Below, one piece after another: positions 5,605 through 33,470 of a stretch of DNA of 33,946 nt. The notes beneath the pieces are model-generated. The model was not told the DNA's origin. It searched no databases and worked only from the letters and a program-made list of their open reading frames with translations. The position numbers and the translations under genes were made by a program. Origin of the DNA: a virus (lineage: Duplodnaviria; Caudoviricetes). Positions within the stretch are counted from its first letter, which is position 1; every line of letters begins with the position of its first letter. Location: positions 1-33,946 of the IMG/VR virus record IMGVR_UViG_3300032330_000282. The stretch is one strand, 5' to 3'.

Positions 5605-6519
5605 ATGGCTGGTATTATAACAACCGCTTCACACCCTAAGGCCCTATGGCCTGGGATCAAAGCATGGTGGGGTCAAGTCTACGATGAACATAAAGAAGAA
5701 TATTCTCAATTGTTCGACAGCGACACATCCTCAATGAACTATGAAGAAGATGTTCAACTTACAGGTTTCGGTTTAGCTCCAGTTAAATCCGAAGGTTCTG
5801 GAGTTTCATACGATTCAGAAATTCAAGGTTTCACAACACGATACACTCACGTTGCTTACGCACTTGGTTATATCGTAACAAAAGAAGAGTTAGATGACAA
5901 CTTGTATGAACAAGTATCACGTCGTAGAGCTGCAGCATTAGCGATGTCTTTCCGTCAAACGAAAGAAAACATTGGTGCTAACATCTACAACCGTGCATTT
6001 AATGGTACATATTTAGGTGGTGACGGTGTTGCTTTATGTTCTACAGCACATCCTAACACATCTGGTGGTACATTTGCTAACACTCCTACAGTTGCAGCTG
6101 ACTTGTCAGAAGCTTCTTTAGAAGATGCATTAACAGCAATTATGGGTTTCCAAAATGACCGTGGTCTTTTGATCAATGTTATGCCAAGAAGCTTAGTTGT
6201 TGCTCGTCAAAACTGGTGGAATGCTAACCGCATTATGAAATCAGCGTACACACCATCAACAGCAAACAATGCAGTGAACGTTTTAGTAGCGACAAATGCG
6301 TTACCAGAAGGTATCGTAATGAACCACTACTTATCTTCACCTAATGCATGGTTTGTAAGAACTAACATCCAAAACGGTCTCAAGTACTACTCACGTGTTG
6401 GTATTCAATTTGATCAAGACAATGATTTTGATACAATGAATGCTAAGGCTAAGGGTTACGAAAGATACTCATTTGGCTGGACAGACCCTAGAGCAATCTA
6501 CGGTGTTAACGGTCCTTAA
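5605..6519 (+). CDS. Major capsid protein (Mu gpT-like HK97 fold)
   Basis: 304 aa with LWPG, GFGLAPVKSEG, YALGY, GGDGVALCSTAHP, NHYLSSPNAWF and ERYSFGWTDPR. Strong TAAGGAG RBS and optimal codons. Confidence 0.9.
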   Translation: MAGIITTASHPKALWPGIKAWWGQVYDEHKEEYSQLFDSDTSSMNYEEDVQLTGFGLAPVKSEGSGVSYDSEIQGFTTRYTHVAYALGYIVTKEELDDNLYEQVSRRRAAALAMSFRQTKENIGANIYNRAFNGTYLGGDGVALCSTAHPNTSGGTFANTPTVAADLSEASLEDALTAIMGFQNDRGLLINVMPRSLVVARQNWWNANRIMKSAYTPSTANNAVNVLVATNALPEGIVMNHYLSSPNAWFVRTNIQNGLKYYSRVGIQFDQDNDFDTMNAKAKGYERYSFGWTDPRAIYGVNGP

Positions 6520-6532
6520 TTAGGACTATATG

Positions 6533-6576
6533 AGATGTAGAGGGGGCGAGTTAAAGCTCCCTCTTATCTTTACTTA
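6533..6576 (+). terminator. Post-capsid hairpin (weak terminator or mRNA stabiliser)
   Basis: AGAGGGGGC (6539-6547) pairs with GCTCCCTCT (6556-6564), including one G-U pair. The stem can extend via AGAT/ATCT. The following T-rich tract is interrupted. Confidence 0.6.
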
Positions 6577-6585
6577 GGAGTTTAT

Positions 6586-6645
6586 ATGTCATATCCAATC
6601 GAAGAGAAAAAAGGTAAACGCCCACCTGTCAAAAAGGGTAAATAA
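6586..6645 (+). CDS. 19-aa Lys/Pro-rich small ORF (MSYPIEEKKGKRPPVKKGK)
   Basis: AGGAG lies 5 nt before ATG 6586 and the ORF stops at TAA 6643-6645. It is below the ORF-track length cutoff. Confidence 0.55.
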   Translation: MSYPIEEKKGKRPPVKKGK

Positions 6646-6654
6646 TTTAATTGT

Positions 6655-6711
6655 TCTCTGATGACGCTTAGAGATAAGCGTTGTTAAAAAACATAACAAC
6701 GTCAAAGGAGA
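6655..6711 (+). promoter_or_regulatory. Candidate structured cis-regulatory RNA (three-way junction covering the RBS)
   Basis: P1 = TGAC 6662-65/GTCA 6701-04. P2 = GCTTA-GAGA-TAAGC 6666-79. P3 = GTTGTTA/TAACAAC 6680-6700. TCTCT 6655-59 pairs with GGAGA 6707-11. Confidence 0.55.
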
Positions 6712-6716
6712 TTTAT

Positions 6717-7430
6717 ATGGGTAATCCAACAAGATTTACAAGCGGAATAGGTACAGCTTACCAAGGTGAAACACTAGGTAACTATCCTCTTCCAGATCCG
6801 TTTCATACTGGTAGTACACAAGGTTTAGGTATTTCAATTTATCAAAATGATTTTAATACACTTATTGGTACTGACTATACAGTAACTGGTACTTCATCAA
6901 CATTTGCATTGTCAAGTACAATCGTTGGTGGTGCAGGTGTATTAACACCAGGTGCAGCTACAACAGCTACAGCTGCTTACAAAGCTGGTTCATTCTTACA
7001 ATTCCAAGCTGGTAATCAGTTCTGGTATGAAGCAAGATTTAAAGCATCAGCTGTGTCAGGTACTAAATCATTCTATGTAGGTTTACGTAATGGTTCAGGT
7101 GTAACTGATGGTTTATGGTTTGCTAAAGCAGCATCATCAACATCTGTTAACTTAGTATCAACAGTAGGTTCTACAGCTACTACTTTAGTAACTGGCGTAG
7201 CAACAGCTGCAGCAGATACTTGGCTTAACTTAGGTTTCTACTACGATGGTACTGATTTACTAGTCTATTCAGACAATGCTTTAGTAGCTCGTGTTTCAGC
7301 TCCAACAATTGGTACTTCAGGTACAACACTATCAAGCGTGTTAATGGCACCTGTATTCCAAATTACTCCAACAGCAACTGATACTTTAAGTGTTGATTTC
7401 GTTTTAGCTGCTCAAGAACTAGTACGCTAA
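6717..7430 (+). CDS. Virion structural protein (beta-rich, possible head spike or lectin-like fold)
   Basis: True start is ATG 6717 after AAGGAG rather than the track's 6681. T/S/G-rich, with MGNPTRFTSG, WYEARFK and LGFYYDG. Confidence 0.65.
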   Translation: MGNPTRFTSGIGTAYQGETLGNYPLPDPFHTGSTQGLGISIYQNDFNTLIGTDYTVTGTSSTFALSSTIVGGAGVLTPGAATTATAAYKAGSFLQFQAGNQFWYEARFKASAVSGTKSFYVGLRNGSGVTDGLWFAKAASSTSVNLVSTVGSTATTLVTGVATAAADTWLNLGFYYDGTDLLVYSDNALVARVSAPTIGTSGTTLSSVLMAPVFQITPTATDTLSVDFVLAAQELVR

Positions 7431-7860: not shown

Positions 7861-8211
7861 ATGGAAGAAATCATAGGATTATTGTTCCATGCACGTACTA
7901 TAGCGCATATAGAGCATTTAAAGACTAAGAGCTATGCTCAACACAAAGCTCTTGGTCATTTCTATGATGATGTTGTTGAGCTAGCAGATGACCTTGCAGA
8001 AGCATTTCAAGGGGATGAAGGTATTATGGCTGACATCCCTTTGTTTTCTAGTATGCCTACAGACACTATTGACAACTTCTTAGTTAAACAAGTTAATATG
8101 ATTGAGAAATTAAGAGTATCAGCGTCTAGTAGAAAAGCTGTTCAAAACATCATTGATGAAGTAATTGCTTTATATCTAAGTACTATTTATAAACTAAGGA
8201 ACTTATCATGA
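7861..8211 (+). CDS. Ferritin/Dps-like four-helix protein (DUF5856-like)
   Basis: Start is ATG 7861 after GGAG. AHIEHLKTKSYAQHKALGHFYD...ADDLAEAFQG resembles the Dps H-x-W/H...H..F..Y....D..AE pattern. Confidence 0.75.
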   Translation: MEEIIGLLFHARTIAHIEHLKTKSYAQHKALGHFYDDVVELADDLAEAFQGDEGIMADIPLFSSMPTDTIDNFLVKQVNMIEKLRVSASSRKAVQNIIDEVIALYLSTIYKLRNLS

Positions 8212-31081: not shown

Positions 31082-31608
31082 TAGACTGGAATGTCATCCT
31101 CTAAATCATCAAAGTTTACTTCTTTAGTAGGGTTTGGATCTTTACTAAATACATAAGCTTCGAATTGTTTAGCTGTTGCAATAACTTCATCAACAGATTT
31201 ACCCTGTCCTAGTAACTCTACTGCAGTTGATAGAGATGATTGACGAATGATAAACACTTGTCGTGCAGCTCTTTCTTCTTTAGTTTCATAGTTACTTCCT
31301 GTTACTCTACCACCTGCTTGCGCAGTTGCTGGTTTACTTTGTGTAGCCACTGGTGCATCTCCTTCATTACCAATACCTGTCCAATCCCAAAACCCTTTGG
31401 CATTTTTAACAGTCGTTACATTAACAACCTCACCTTTAGCTAAACCTTTGATATGATTAAATACCGATGGGTTACTAAAAGACATAAGTTTTTTATTAGC
31501 TACTTGACCATTTTCAGTCTTGTAAGTTATTTCAATCTCTTGGTAAGATCTACCATTAGATGAAGCTTTAGTACTAGGTGTTCCAACATCAACAATATTA
31601 ATTAGCAT
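31081..31608 (-). CDS. ssb: Single-stranded DNA-binding protein (putative)
   Basis: OB-like beta N-terminal half, acidic tail FDDLEDDIPV, and a position between polymerase and exonuclease. Confidence 0.65.
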   Translation of the reverse strand: MLINIVDVGTPSTKASSNGRSYQEIEITYKTENGQVANKKLMSFSNPSVFNHIKGLAKGEVVNVTTVKNAKGFWDWTGIGNEGDAPVATQSKPATAQAGGRVTGSNYETKEERAARQVFIIRQSSLSTAVELLGQGKSVDEVIATAKQFEAYVFSKDPNPTKEVNFDDLEDDIPV

Positions 31609-32317
31609 TTACTATCTCCATGTTACCCCAATTAAGTCCAACTTGACATTCGACTCTCATAGGAAGATTAAATTCAACCCCAAATAACTTCTTAAAGTTA
31701 AGAGGGATGTCCGTAAAACAATCATCTACTAACTTAACTATACTATTATTATCGCATAGTTTCTCATCAAAGTCAACTATAATCGAATCATGAACAGTGT
31801 TTATTAACTTAGTTCCTTCTACTTTCTTTAGTCTATTAGCTAGACTAACTCTTGCTATAGCCATCAAATCAGCACCGAGTCCTTGCACTGGATAGTTAAG
31901 GATTCGTGTGCGGGGCCATTTAGCTTTACCATATCTTATTTCTGGTTCATAATGATATACCCTCCCTGTAGGCATAGTTATTTTTCTATCTCTTTTAGCT
32001 TTCTCAACAATCTCTTTGTGCCAGGCATCAAGTCCACTATACTTTTTATAGAACTCATCAATGATGTTCTGCCAGAATGTTTCTTGTTTACTGGTATCAG
32101 TAAAGTTAGGATCATTAGCATAACTATAAGCACTGCCACCATAGATGAGTCTGAATACAAATGTCTTAGCAATGAGACGAGAAGGTAGGCCGAACCTAAC
32201 CTGATTATCCGTGTGCTGATCTGTCCCATCCCATATCTCCTTAATAGCAGTTTGATCTTGTGATAGATAAGCTGCACATACCCATTCTAGTGCTTTAGCA
32301 TCAGCTTGTAACAGCAT
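31598..32317 (-). CDS. polA: DNA polymerase family A, C-terminal subunit (palm/fingers, motifs A-B-C)
   Basis: ATG 32317 with GGAG 5 nt upstream. LLQADAKALE (motif A), RLIAKTFVFRLIYGG (motif B), NYPVQG and TVHDS (motif C). Confidence 0.9.
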   Translation of the reverse strand: MLLQADAKALEWVCAAYLSQDQTAIKEIWDGTDQHTDNQVRFGLPSRLIAKTFVFRLIYGGSAYSYANDPNFTDTSKQETFWQNIIDEFYKKYSGLDAWHKEIVEKAKRDRKITMPTGRVYHYEPEIRYGKAKWPRTRILNYPVQGLGADLMAIARVSLANRLKKVEGTKLINTVHDSIIVDFDEKLCDNNSIVKLVDDCFTDIPLNFKKLFGVEFNLPMRVECQVGLNWGNMEIVNAN

Positions 32318-33470
32318 ACCTACTCCCAAATAGTTGTTTAATTTCTCCATCAAAGTTCTGTAAGTTAGGTTTAGTAGACGATAGTCTTCCTGTCTTAGCA
32401 ACACATTGATTAAGAACACCGTGTAGTGTACCTTCTTTCCAGTTCATAGTCTTGCGTAGTACTACCAATCCTTCATAGTATGCAGATAATCGTTTCTCTA
32501 ATGTAGCCCTAGCTAAGATAAGTTCTATTAATTCTTTAGCTTGTTTACTACCTTTTAATGATCGTAATGTCTGTTCATCATTAGAGAAGTAACCTTCTTT
32601 TTCTAGTTCAGAACCTTTAAGAGGATTAGCCAAACGTTCAAACTCTATAACGTATTCTTTCCATTGGCTTTTAGGTAAGCCCGCTCTAGTCCCTGTTTTA
32701 AAAGTACCAATAACTTCTTGACGTCTGACTTTAATAGATCCCCCATAGAGAAGAGCACTAATATGTTCAGTGCTATTAGCATTAAACTCAGGAAGCTTAT
32801 GATAAGTATAAAGGATTGAATCAATACGTTCAATATCTTTTGTAGTTTCTTCCCCAAGCCTAACACACTCTGTTTCATTAAATTTAAGACCATTGTATTC
32901 CATCTCCTCTAATATTAATAAGTCTTGGTTATGTAAGCTAAGAAGTCTTTGCATTTGTTTTGTGCCAACTGCAAATTCTTCCATTTGTTTTTCATACACT
33001 TTTTGCGTTAACTGCAAATCTTGTGTGAGGTATTCTTCTAACAAGTCTTTAGGTATCTTGTCAGTATCTATCCCATTCTTCCAATAATCAGTAGCAATGA
33101 TATCAAGTTTACTACCCAAAGCATAGTAGTCAGCAACACCATTGAGACTTGGATAGGGATATTGTTGGCCCGTAAGTATAAAATGAGCCAACTGACAATC
33201 CCAAATACGCTTATCCATAAAATTAATTCCATAGCGTCTTAACCAATGCAAGTCAAACTTAATGTTAAAGCCAACAAGAGTATCGTGGCTGTCGATGCTT
33301 CTTTGTATAGCGTCAAGTCTTTCTCTGTTAGGACTTCCGCTATAATCAATGTCGTATAAATAAGTGCCATCAGTACTATAGAGTCCAACATAACAAAGTT
33401 TATTCCTTTCATCAAATGGATTACCTTTATTGCTTATGGTTGTTTCAACATCTAAGATTAAGCTGCGCAA
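32301..33470 (-). CDS. polA: DNA polymerase family A, N-terminal subunit (3'-5' exonuclease + thumb)
   Basis: TTG start after AAGGA. LDVET, GFNIKFD, YLTQD, MEYNG and KTGRLSSTKPNLQN. Confidence 0.9.
   Translation of the reverse strand: MRSLILDVETTISNKGNPFDERNKLCYVGLYSTDGTYLYDIDYSGSPNRERLDAIQRSIDSHDTLVGFNIKFDLHWLRRYGINFMDKRIWDCQLAHFILTGQQYPYPSLNGVADYYALGSKLDIIATDYWKNGIDTDKIPKDLLEEYLTQDLQLTQKVYEKQMEEFAVGTKQMQRLLSLHNQDLLILEEMEYNGLKFNETECVRLGEETTKDIERIDSILYTYHKLPEFNANSTEHISALLYGGSIKVRRQEVIGTFKTGTRAGLPKSQWKEYVIEFERLANPLKGSELEKEGYFSNDEQTLRSLKGSKQAKELIELILARATLEKRLSAYYEGLVVLRKTMNWKEGTLHGVLNQCVAKTGRLSSTKPNLQNFDGEIKQLFGSRYAVTS

Follow-up and report, generated by a model that had tools for sequence, protein, structure and literature searches.

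A linker-free three-way junction at the Shine-Dalgarno sequence of a post-capsid phage gene, a candidate translational operator for a predicted spike protein

The post-capsid locus

The DNA analyzed here, referred to as the window, is the whole 33,946-nt stretch of a Caudoviricetes record (IMGVR_UViG_3300032330_000282), a 33.9-kb phage sequence in which terminase, portal, GroES, and likely scaffold genes were annotated. A 207-aa pre-capsid protein is encoded upstream of the major capsid gene (5605 to 6519, + strand; 304 aa). The latter was assigned to the Mu-like gpT/HTVC023P-like type through PHROG 371, Pfam (Mu-like_gpT, PF10124; 24.7 bits against a cut-off of 20.1), and tblastn, by which its kin were Pelagibacter phage HTVC023P, Roseobacter phage CRP-901, and Caulobacter phage RW. 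Searches for solved homologs of the capsid and pre-capsid proteins, and of the "cement" protein of DSL-LC04, found none. Downstream of the capsid gene, and likewise on the + strand, lie a terminator-like hairpin with a weak U tail (6539 to 6564), a micro-ORF read from the sequence that encodes a basic 19-aa peptide with a KGKRP motif (6586 to 6645), a folded leader (6655 to 6711), and, directly 3' of this fold, a gene for a 237-aa protein (6717 to 7430). Homologs of this protein are approximately 237 aa long and the conserved start is ATG 6717; the in-frame TTG at 6681 given by the ORF finder lies inside the leader fold.

A linker-free junction in the leader of the 237-aa gene

In the fold predicted for the + strand, three helices meet at a three-way junction (6662 to 6704) with zero linker bases. 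P1 pairs 6662-6665 with 6701-6704, and its 5' strand, identified by folding, conservation, and covariation, ends in the junction C at 6665. The P2 arm (6666 to 6679) has 5 bp and a GAGA loop in the window and the P3 arm (6680 to 6700) 7 bp and a 7-nt loop, spanning 10 to 29 nt and 11 to 21 nt, respectively, across relatives. Beyond a GA/AA 2x2 internal loop, P0 pairs 6655-6659 with 6707-6711 (TCTCT/GGAGA). The anti-Shine-Dalgarno strand of P0 and the GA side of the loop thus occupy 6655 to 6661, while 6701 to 6711 hold the 3' strand of P1, the AA of the loop, and the Shine-Dalgarno (SD) sequence (AGGAG, 6706-6710) paired in P0.

The minimum free energy structure from ViennaRNA (-19.5 kcal/mol, 70% of the ensemble of the window leader) was identical to the one drawn from the letters alone in a preliminary description of this DNA, and all pairings proposed there, including the extension of P1 that places TCTCT on GGAGA, are present in the sequence. 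The accompanying claim, that so much pairing is unlikely to be chance, was borne out by a fold z of -5.22 and by shuffles, of which 0 of 200 were equally stable. The junction was retained when folded in a 224-nt context. Both of the 8-bp alternative helices are also present; the extended-P2 hairpin reached -13.1 kcal/mol and the best SD-free fold -15.3 kcal/mol, compared with -19.5 kcal/mol for the junction, placing the alternatives 4 to 6 kcal/mol above it. When successive prefixes of the window leader were folded, those of up to 47 nt formed the long P2 hairpin and those of 57 nt or more the junction. No second such junction was found in the 33.9-kb record, its own reverse complement aside. 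At the junction, no intrinsic terminator was called on the + strand, and the one call on the - strand, on P3, was no more than chance would give (4 calls, against 2.9 expected).

Conservation and covariation across relatives

Leaders of the family were gathered blind to the leader itself, by protein searches and codon patterns for the N-terminus of the downstream gene, giving 131 distinct sequences; 14 of 145 leaders, known only from a leader-sequence pattern scan that is biased and has many chance matches, were left out of this set. A junction was scored where three arms of at least 3 bp met without linker at C|G steps, C|U being permitted on the third strand. This rule was passed by 126 of the 131 distinct leaders, compared with 7 of 2,620 dinucleotide shuffles and 0 of 24 other window leaders, and rules with other core dinucleotides gave 0 (GC), 4 (AT), and 2 (TA) passes. 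Two of the five misses have a junction that is degraded by eye (L311 and L301), one has lost the junction although a PTRF-class gene follows the capsid gene (L391), and no capsid gene was seen near the remaining two (L327 and L328). A covariance model (R1) built from 52 cores recovered all 19 held-out leaders and none of 3 non-family controls; it scored L311 at 14.7 bits and had no match in L301.

A metagenome scan added 18 further family leaders, 16 of which passed; in the two that did not, the three C|G steps can still be made out by eye. The scan of a genome collection returned 28 matches with one true family gene (L578), whose junction is intact; two of the other 27 passed by chance, hence the rule gives false positives in GC-rich DNA. 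L578 is a Bacteriovoracaceae MAG contig, reflecting either a host link or a binning artefact. Junction members spanned AT-rich to GC-rich phages. Among 11 GenBank loci of cultured phages there was no junction, these loci having GAC types, plain hairpins, or nothing.

In the MAFFT alignment, 92% of cells were paired, 129 cells contained double changes, and the covariation score was 0.51; shuffles scored 0.16 and slid partners no higher than 0.16. Conserved structure and covariation in homologous leaders, whose absence would have refuted the preliminary description, were found. Nine pairs had a double change, a number that 47 of 500 shuffles also reached. On a 53-tip capsid tree, approximately 58 joint changes were counted over nine arm positions, such counts being rough because of recombination; the closing pairs P2.1 and P3.1 underwent zero changes and P1.1 a one-sided change to C-U, three times. 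C-U occupied P1.1 in 8 of the 126 leaders. The stems of the 52 cores contained 10 G-U and 0 A-C pairs, which indicates that the coding strand is the one folding. Closable P2 tetraloops in the same cores were of the GNRA (7) and UNCG (7) types, and that both are common also points to coding-strand RNA. The leader fold is real, confirmed as a prediction and by its conservation.

What is conserved is a core of three G-C closing pairs with the same polarity, mostly RC|GY per strand. Judged from the aligned sequences, the junction is approximately threefold-symmetric, the symmetry being imperfect past the first pair. The fixed identity and polarity of the closing pairs, beside arms that covary freely, suggests recognition, beyond stability alone. 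A DNA-level site, for which the TGACG...CGTCA repeat was considered, was rejected because neither its spacing nor its sequence is constant, the pairing covaries, and the stems held 10 G-U pairs and 0 A-C. Neither of the hallmarks of a riboswitch, many conserved unpaired bases and a metabolic context, was found for these leaders, in which the conserved bases are the paired junction bases only.

Predicted pairing of the Shine-Dalgarno sequence

The structure over the ribosome-binding site of the post-capsid gene, noted beforehand for the window, was predicted in every member. The GG of the SD was predicted to be paired in 126 of 126 junction leaders. Of the 38 other genes in the window, 30 have a GG to count, and it was paired in 15 of these; for capsid and pre-capsid genes the counts were 6 of 28 and 20 of 27, respectively. 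Opening the SD had a predicted median cost of 3.4 kcal/mol in junction leaders (2.9 kcal/mol in the window leader), against 2.1, 1.3, and 4.1 kcal/mol for other window, capsid, and pre-capsid genes, respectively. SD occlusion is thus predicted to be consistent but mild, below the opening cost of the pre-capsid gene, and at approximately 3 to 4 kcal/mol the free RNA would leak translation. Such mild occlusion is consistent with a structure that a ligand could tip and also with a modest fixed attenuator.

Clade-specific parts and upstream partners

Several features singled out in the preliminary description proved to be clade traits. This applies to the GNRA loop, given the equal number of UNCG loops, and to the GA/AA internal loop, which occurred in 43 of 126 leaders, a further 34 having AA/AA and the remainder being paired or other. 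Branch migration of the junction, also proposed there, was upheld in part. Both 8-bp helices exist in the window, and across the 52 cores the P2 alternative averaged 3.88 bp compared with 3.28 bp with swapped partners (0 of 2,000 partner swaps reached 3.88, in a test confounded by kinship); the P3 alternative, in contrast, averaged 1.87 bp against 2.10 bp with swapped partners. As the P2 alternative was just 1 to 2 bp in 17 of the 52 cores, long alternatives are clade-specific and not general.

The junction had further been suggested to act with the upstream hairpin and micro-ORF. A micro-ORF was present in 94 of 110 leaders, 6 to 44 nt and mostly 10 to 27 nt before P1; in the window its stop is 9 nt before P0. 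In 11 distinct leaders, the capsid stop is less than 70 nt from P1 and the micro-ORF is absent, and 4 of these 11 (L063, L347, L402, and L414) are also without the hairpin, the junction following straight after the capsid stop. Seven leaders, including the deep branches L312, L337, and L421, have a terminator-like hairpin between capsid gene and junction and no ORF. Conversely, the micro-ORF was kept in L132-L142 although the junction is replaced there. Because 11 leaders do without the micro-ORF and 4 of them without the hairpin, both upstream elements are, on the evidence of these sequences, dispensable to the junction, and the suggested joint action was not supported.

Two leader classes in the post-capsid slot

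A second class of leader occupies the same slot, in front of TFSGPV-class genes. At least three GAC triplets were found in 103 of 119 TFSGPV-class leaders and in 1 of 126 junction leaders, whereas the junction rule was passed by 1 of the 119, false by eye, and model R1 matched 0 of 74 TFSGPV-class loci. A threefold signature therefore appears to recur in the post-capsid slot, in both leader classes. In L132-L142, where the capsid proteins are 89 to 91% and the pre-capsid proteins 80 to 87% identical, spike gene and leader have been exchanged for a cassette in which a GAC-type leader precedes the gene of a MANTHFSGPV protein of 81-85 aa, in place of junction and lectin gene. Unlike L132-L142, more distant phages retain the junction. 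On a 99-tip capsid tree, gene class changed twice, once at the origin of the PTRF clade and once by a replacement inside it. As far as these genomes indicate, the junction RNA follows the downstream gene family and swaps out with it, although with a gap of approximately 15 nt between leader and gene co-travel is expected from linkage alone. The leader of L132-L142 folds as an interlocked three-helix structure with three AGAC motifs, also seen in HTVC023P, HTVC027P, and DSL-LC04 and without an Rfam match. Lectin homologs of the Caulobacter RW type are 26% identical, begin with TTRFPNGV, and had no junction in 12 distinct leaders; 3 of the 12 passed a looser junction rule, solely via terminator hairpins.

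The Infernal search against Rfam that had been recommended as a check was run and gave no known family, with no match in the window either at the gathering threshold or at E values up to 10, and none in 27 related loci. RF03012 (Mu-gpT-DE), serving as positive control, was recovered in CRP-901 (L286, 2479-2531; 72.3 bits, gathering threshold 49 bits). Like Mu-gpT-DE, the window RNA lies past a Mu-gpT-like capsid gene and on the ribosome-binding site of the next gene; the outer stem of RF03012 also pairs the SD in its alignment, and a threefold short-motif signature is common to both. RF03012 contains unpaired linkers and a GAC(A) motif in triplicate, whereas the window RNA is linker-free and its three C|G steps are paired. 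Gene class differs as well, the window RNA type preceding PTRF-class genes and GAC types preceding TFSGPV-class genes. The junction RNA is no member of Mu-gpT-DE, though the role is probably shared. Mu-gpT-DE reportedly originates from Weinberg 2017. The main text of Weinberg 2017 gave no match to "gpT".

The downstream gene and its predicted product

Complete downstream proteins were homologous throughout (88 of 88; 26 to 99% identity). No PHROG, Pfam, or NCBIfam family and no solved homolog named the 237-aa protein, and its sequence relatives are uncharacterized phage proteins. The AlphaFold2 model had a pLDDT of 82, with residues 1-31 below 50, and its Foldseek matches were CBM66 and legume lectins. 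As modeled, the protein consists of a 31-residue N-terminal arm (MxxPTRFxxGVxT) and a predicted ConA-like lectin beta-sandwich, a sugar-binding fold without a known RNA-binding domain. Modeling of three copies, the one complex size covered and hence one that does not tell a trimer from other oligomers, gave a score of 0.89 against 0.00 for the best control, with a pLDDT of at least 84 and a run-to-run contact agreement of at least 47%. Of 30 solved pairs, 20 reached the 0.89 mark, as did 1 of 23 single chains, and the calibration is only rough. The model supports self-association of the 237-aa protein, with a homotrimer predicted, and the conserved N-terminal arm lies partly within the modeled trimer interface. 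From its gene position, the protein is likely a capsid-surface spike; GenBank labels for genes in the post-capsid slot include "cement" and "minor capsid protein".

A candidate autogenous operator and its alternatives

From the conserved fold and its linkage to the gene, together with the predicted SD pairing and the predicted oligomer, we infer binding and regulation by the gene's own product. In the reading we favor, to which we attach a little less than even confidence, the junction would be a translational operator bound by the predicted trimer of the downstream gene, resulting in self-repression. While capsids offer free sites, the spike trimer would load onto them; surplus trimer would then clamp the threefold junction and lock P1 and P0 over the SD, initiation would stop, and spike supply would be matched to capsid number. 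As in autogenous operators, a conserved structure in the gene's own leader overlaps the SD, by predicted pairing. Inheritance of an operator with the gene it regulates agrees with the swap described above, but linkage explains this too, and RW-type homologs are without the junction. Also speaking against the operator reading are the loss of the junction in L391, the low cost of opening the SD, which does not exceed that of the pre-capsid gene, the sugar-binding fold of a protein with no known RNA-binding domain, the placement of its conserved arm partly in the modeled interface, and the imperfect symmetry of the junction. A more specific version, which we consider possible but doubtful, has the junction as a receptor for the homotrimeric spike, each PTRF arm reading one C|G corner, and the GAC types, including Mu-gpT-DE, as a threefold answer reached independently for the spike class that goes with them.

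The scaffolding protein of phage P22 is said to limit its own synthesis when unassembled, a different protein from that considered here and one reportedly acting without such a junction. A leader junction as operator has a precedent in ribosomal protein uS15, which blocks its own translation (PMC10931766) by stabilizing a three-way junction in rpsO leaders, including those of Thermus thermophilus and Bacillus stearothermophilus. Unlike the window RNA, the uS15 operator is a mimic of a site in rRNA, and its ligand is a monomeric ribosomal protein; the two show no homology, and the candidate binder in the window is a virion trimer with a predicted lectin fold. Perfectly paired DNA three-way junctions have a cavity of approximately 1.1 nm that holds triple-stranded helicates (PMC9825177). 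These are designed DNAs with synthetic ligands, whereas the window holds a natural mRNA leader.

The same pairs could serve another ligand. The near-invariant junction pairs and the SD overlap would suit any binder, and the junction could be an operator or sensor, still gating the SD, for an RNA-binding protein of the host, for a different late protein of the phage, or for a small molecule fitting its cavity; the cavities of three-way junctions bind small molecules and metallopeptides (PMC9825177, for DNA junctions). Capsid, pre-capsid, and micro-ORF products are unlikely candidates, since they persist where the RNA has been exchanged; hosts probably differ, given that members are AT-rich through to GC-rich, and a small-molecule ligand would need more conserved unpaired bases than the few present, leaving this explanation unlikely overall. 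We rate as similarly unlikely that the junction needs no ligand and acts as an attenuator that fixes translation at a low level, possibly with a kinetic window in which the long P2 hairpin forms first with the SD free and P3 then closes it. The order of folding in the prefixes, the P2 alternative that is longer than with swapped partners, and the predicted pairing of the SD in every junction leader all agree with attenuation. Yet a plain hairpin, as used by RW-type homologs, would suffice, and attenuation leaves unexplained why the three closing pairs keep their polarity while neighboring pairs flip; the P2 alternative, moreover, is minimal in the 17 cores mentioned, and the swap test behind it is confounded by kinship.

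Alternatively, the junction could be an mRNA processing or stability element, which would give the capsid message a 3' barrier or the spike message a protected 5' end, with decay setting stoichiometry. Rfam labels Mu-gpT-DE "sRNA", and in the four leaders noted above the junction follows the capsid stop without a terminator. Contigs of two metatranscriptome studies had loose ends at 6686, but the letters there match the P3 loop variant of a relative and mark no RNA end. Among metatranscriptome contigs of relatives, which do not show strand, level, or ends, the junction was covered in 3 of 4 runs and the hairpin crossed in 2. The distance from the element to the downstream ATG is near-fixed (13 to 26 nt), whereas that to the capsid stop ranges from 15 nt to approximately 1 kb, and the element swaps with the downstream gene; we therefore regard processing as improbable. 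Coupling to the micro-ORF, with ribosomes that terminate there melting P0, would fit the position of its stop shortly before P0 or P1 in most leaders, but spacing varies and the seven leaders with a hairpin and no ORF, deep branches among them, speak against it, making this the least credible explanation.

Novelty and significance

No description of a linker-free junction leader motif was found in the literature searched, subscription journals being mostly outside the search. Fremin 2023 offers 8,495 candidate structured-RNA models from the viral IMG/VR set (PMC10690425), and four of its supplement files had no match for short motifs or contig ids. The junction is apparently an uncatalogued leader RNA, with no match in Rfam, though it may already have been predicted computationally among the Fremin 2023 models or in the Weinberg 2017 supplement. 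It constitutes a well-covarying RNA family of rare shape, in which three helices meet with no linker and the same closing pair occurs three times, and by joining the slot of the orphan Mu-gpT-DE it makes the function of that orphan testable. Among phages with approximately 90% identical capsids, each of the two spike classes comes with an RNA class of its own, which provides a ready cross-specificity comparison. If the trimer does bind the junction, phages would have a simple means of keeping an accessory virion protein in proportion to capsid number, and the synthetic junction-cavity binders would have a counterpart in nature. Should each PTRF arm further read one corner and the GAC types be an independent parallel, symmetry-matched RNA operators would count trimeric virion proteins across a very abundant aquatic phage group.

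Additional observations

The micro-ORFs form a lysine-rich family after the capsid gene (approximately 18 to 60 aa), with a KGKRP-like motif in 86 of 94, and the product could be a DNA-binding internal virion peptide. Near-consensus sigma-70 promoter sequences were seen by eye just past the capsid stop in L016, L021, L031, L148, L157, and L158, at the place of the hairpin in the window, and may give the spike gene a transcript of its own in these phages. ORFs are inserted between capsid gene and leader in L024, L143, L147, L155, and Caulobacter RW (L288, 3888-5393), which we take, by eye, to be HNH-endonuclease-like. L031 carries a PqqA precursor peptide gene (1874-1945, + strand; TIGR02107, 35.6 bits, cut-off 20) in the phage late operon, between a basic ORF and the junction, and L024 has a similar ORF; the sequence hints at a PQQ-using, perhaps methylotroph, host.

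Elsewhere in the window, a small ferritin/Dps-like gene (PHROG 858, "starvation-inducible transcriptional regulator"; DUF5856) is located among the virion genes at 7861-8211 (+ strand). The family A DNA polymerase (31598-33470, - strand) is split over two ORFs (32301-33470 and 31598-32419) that overlap in different frames, a frameshift that is either programmed or assembly-derived.
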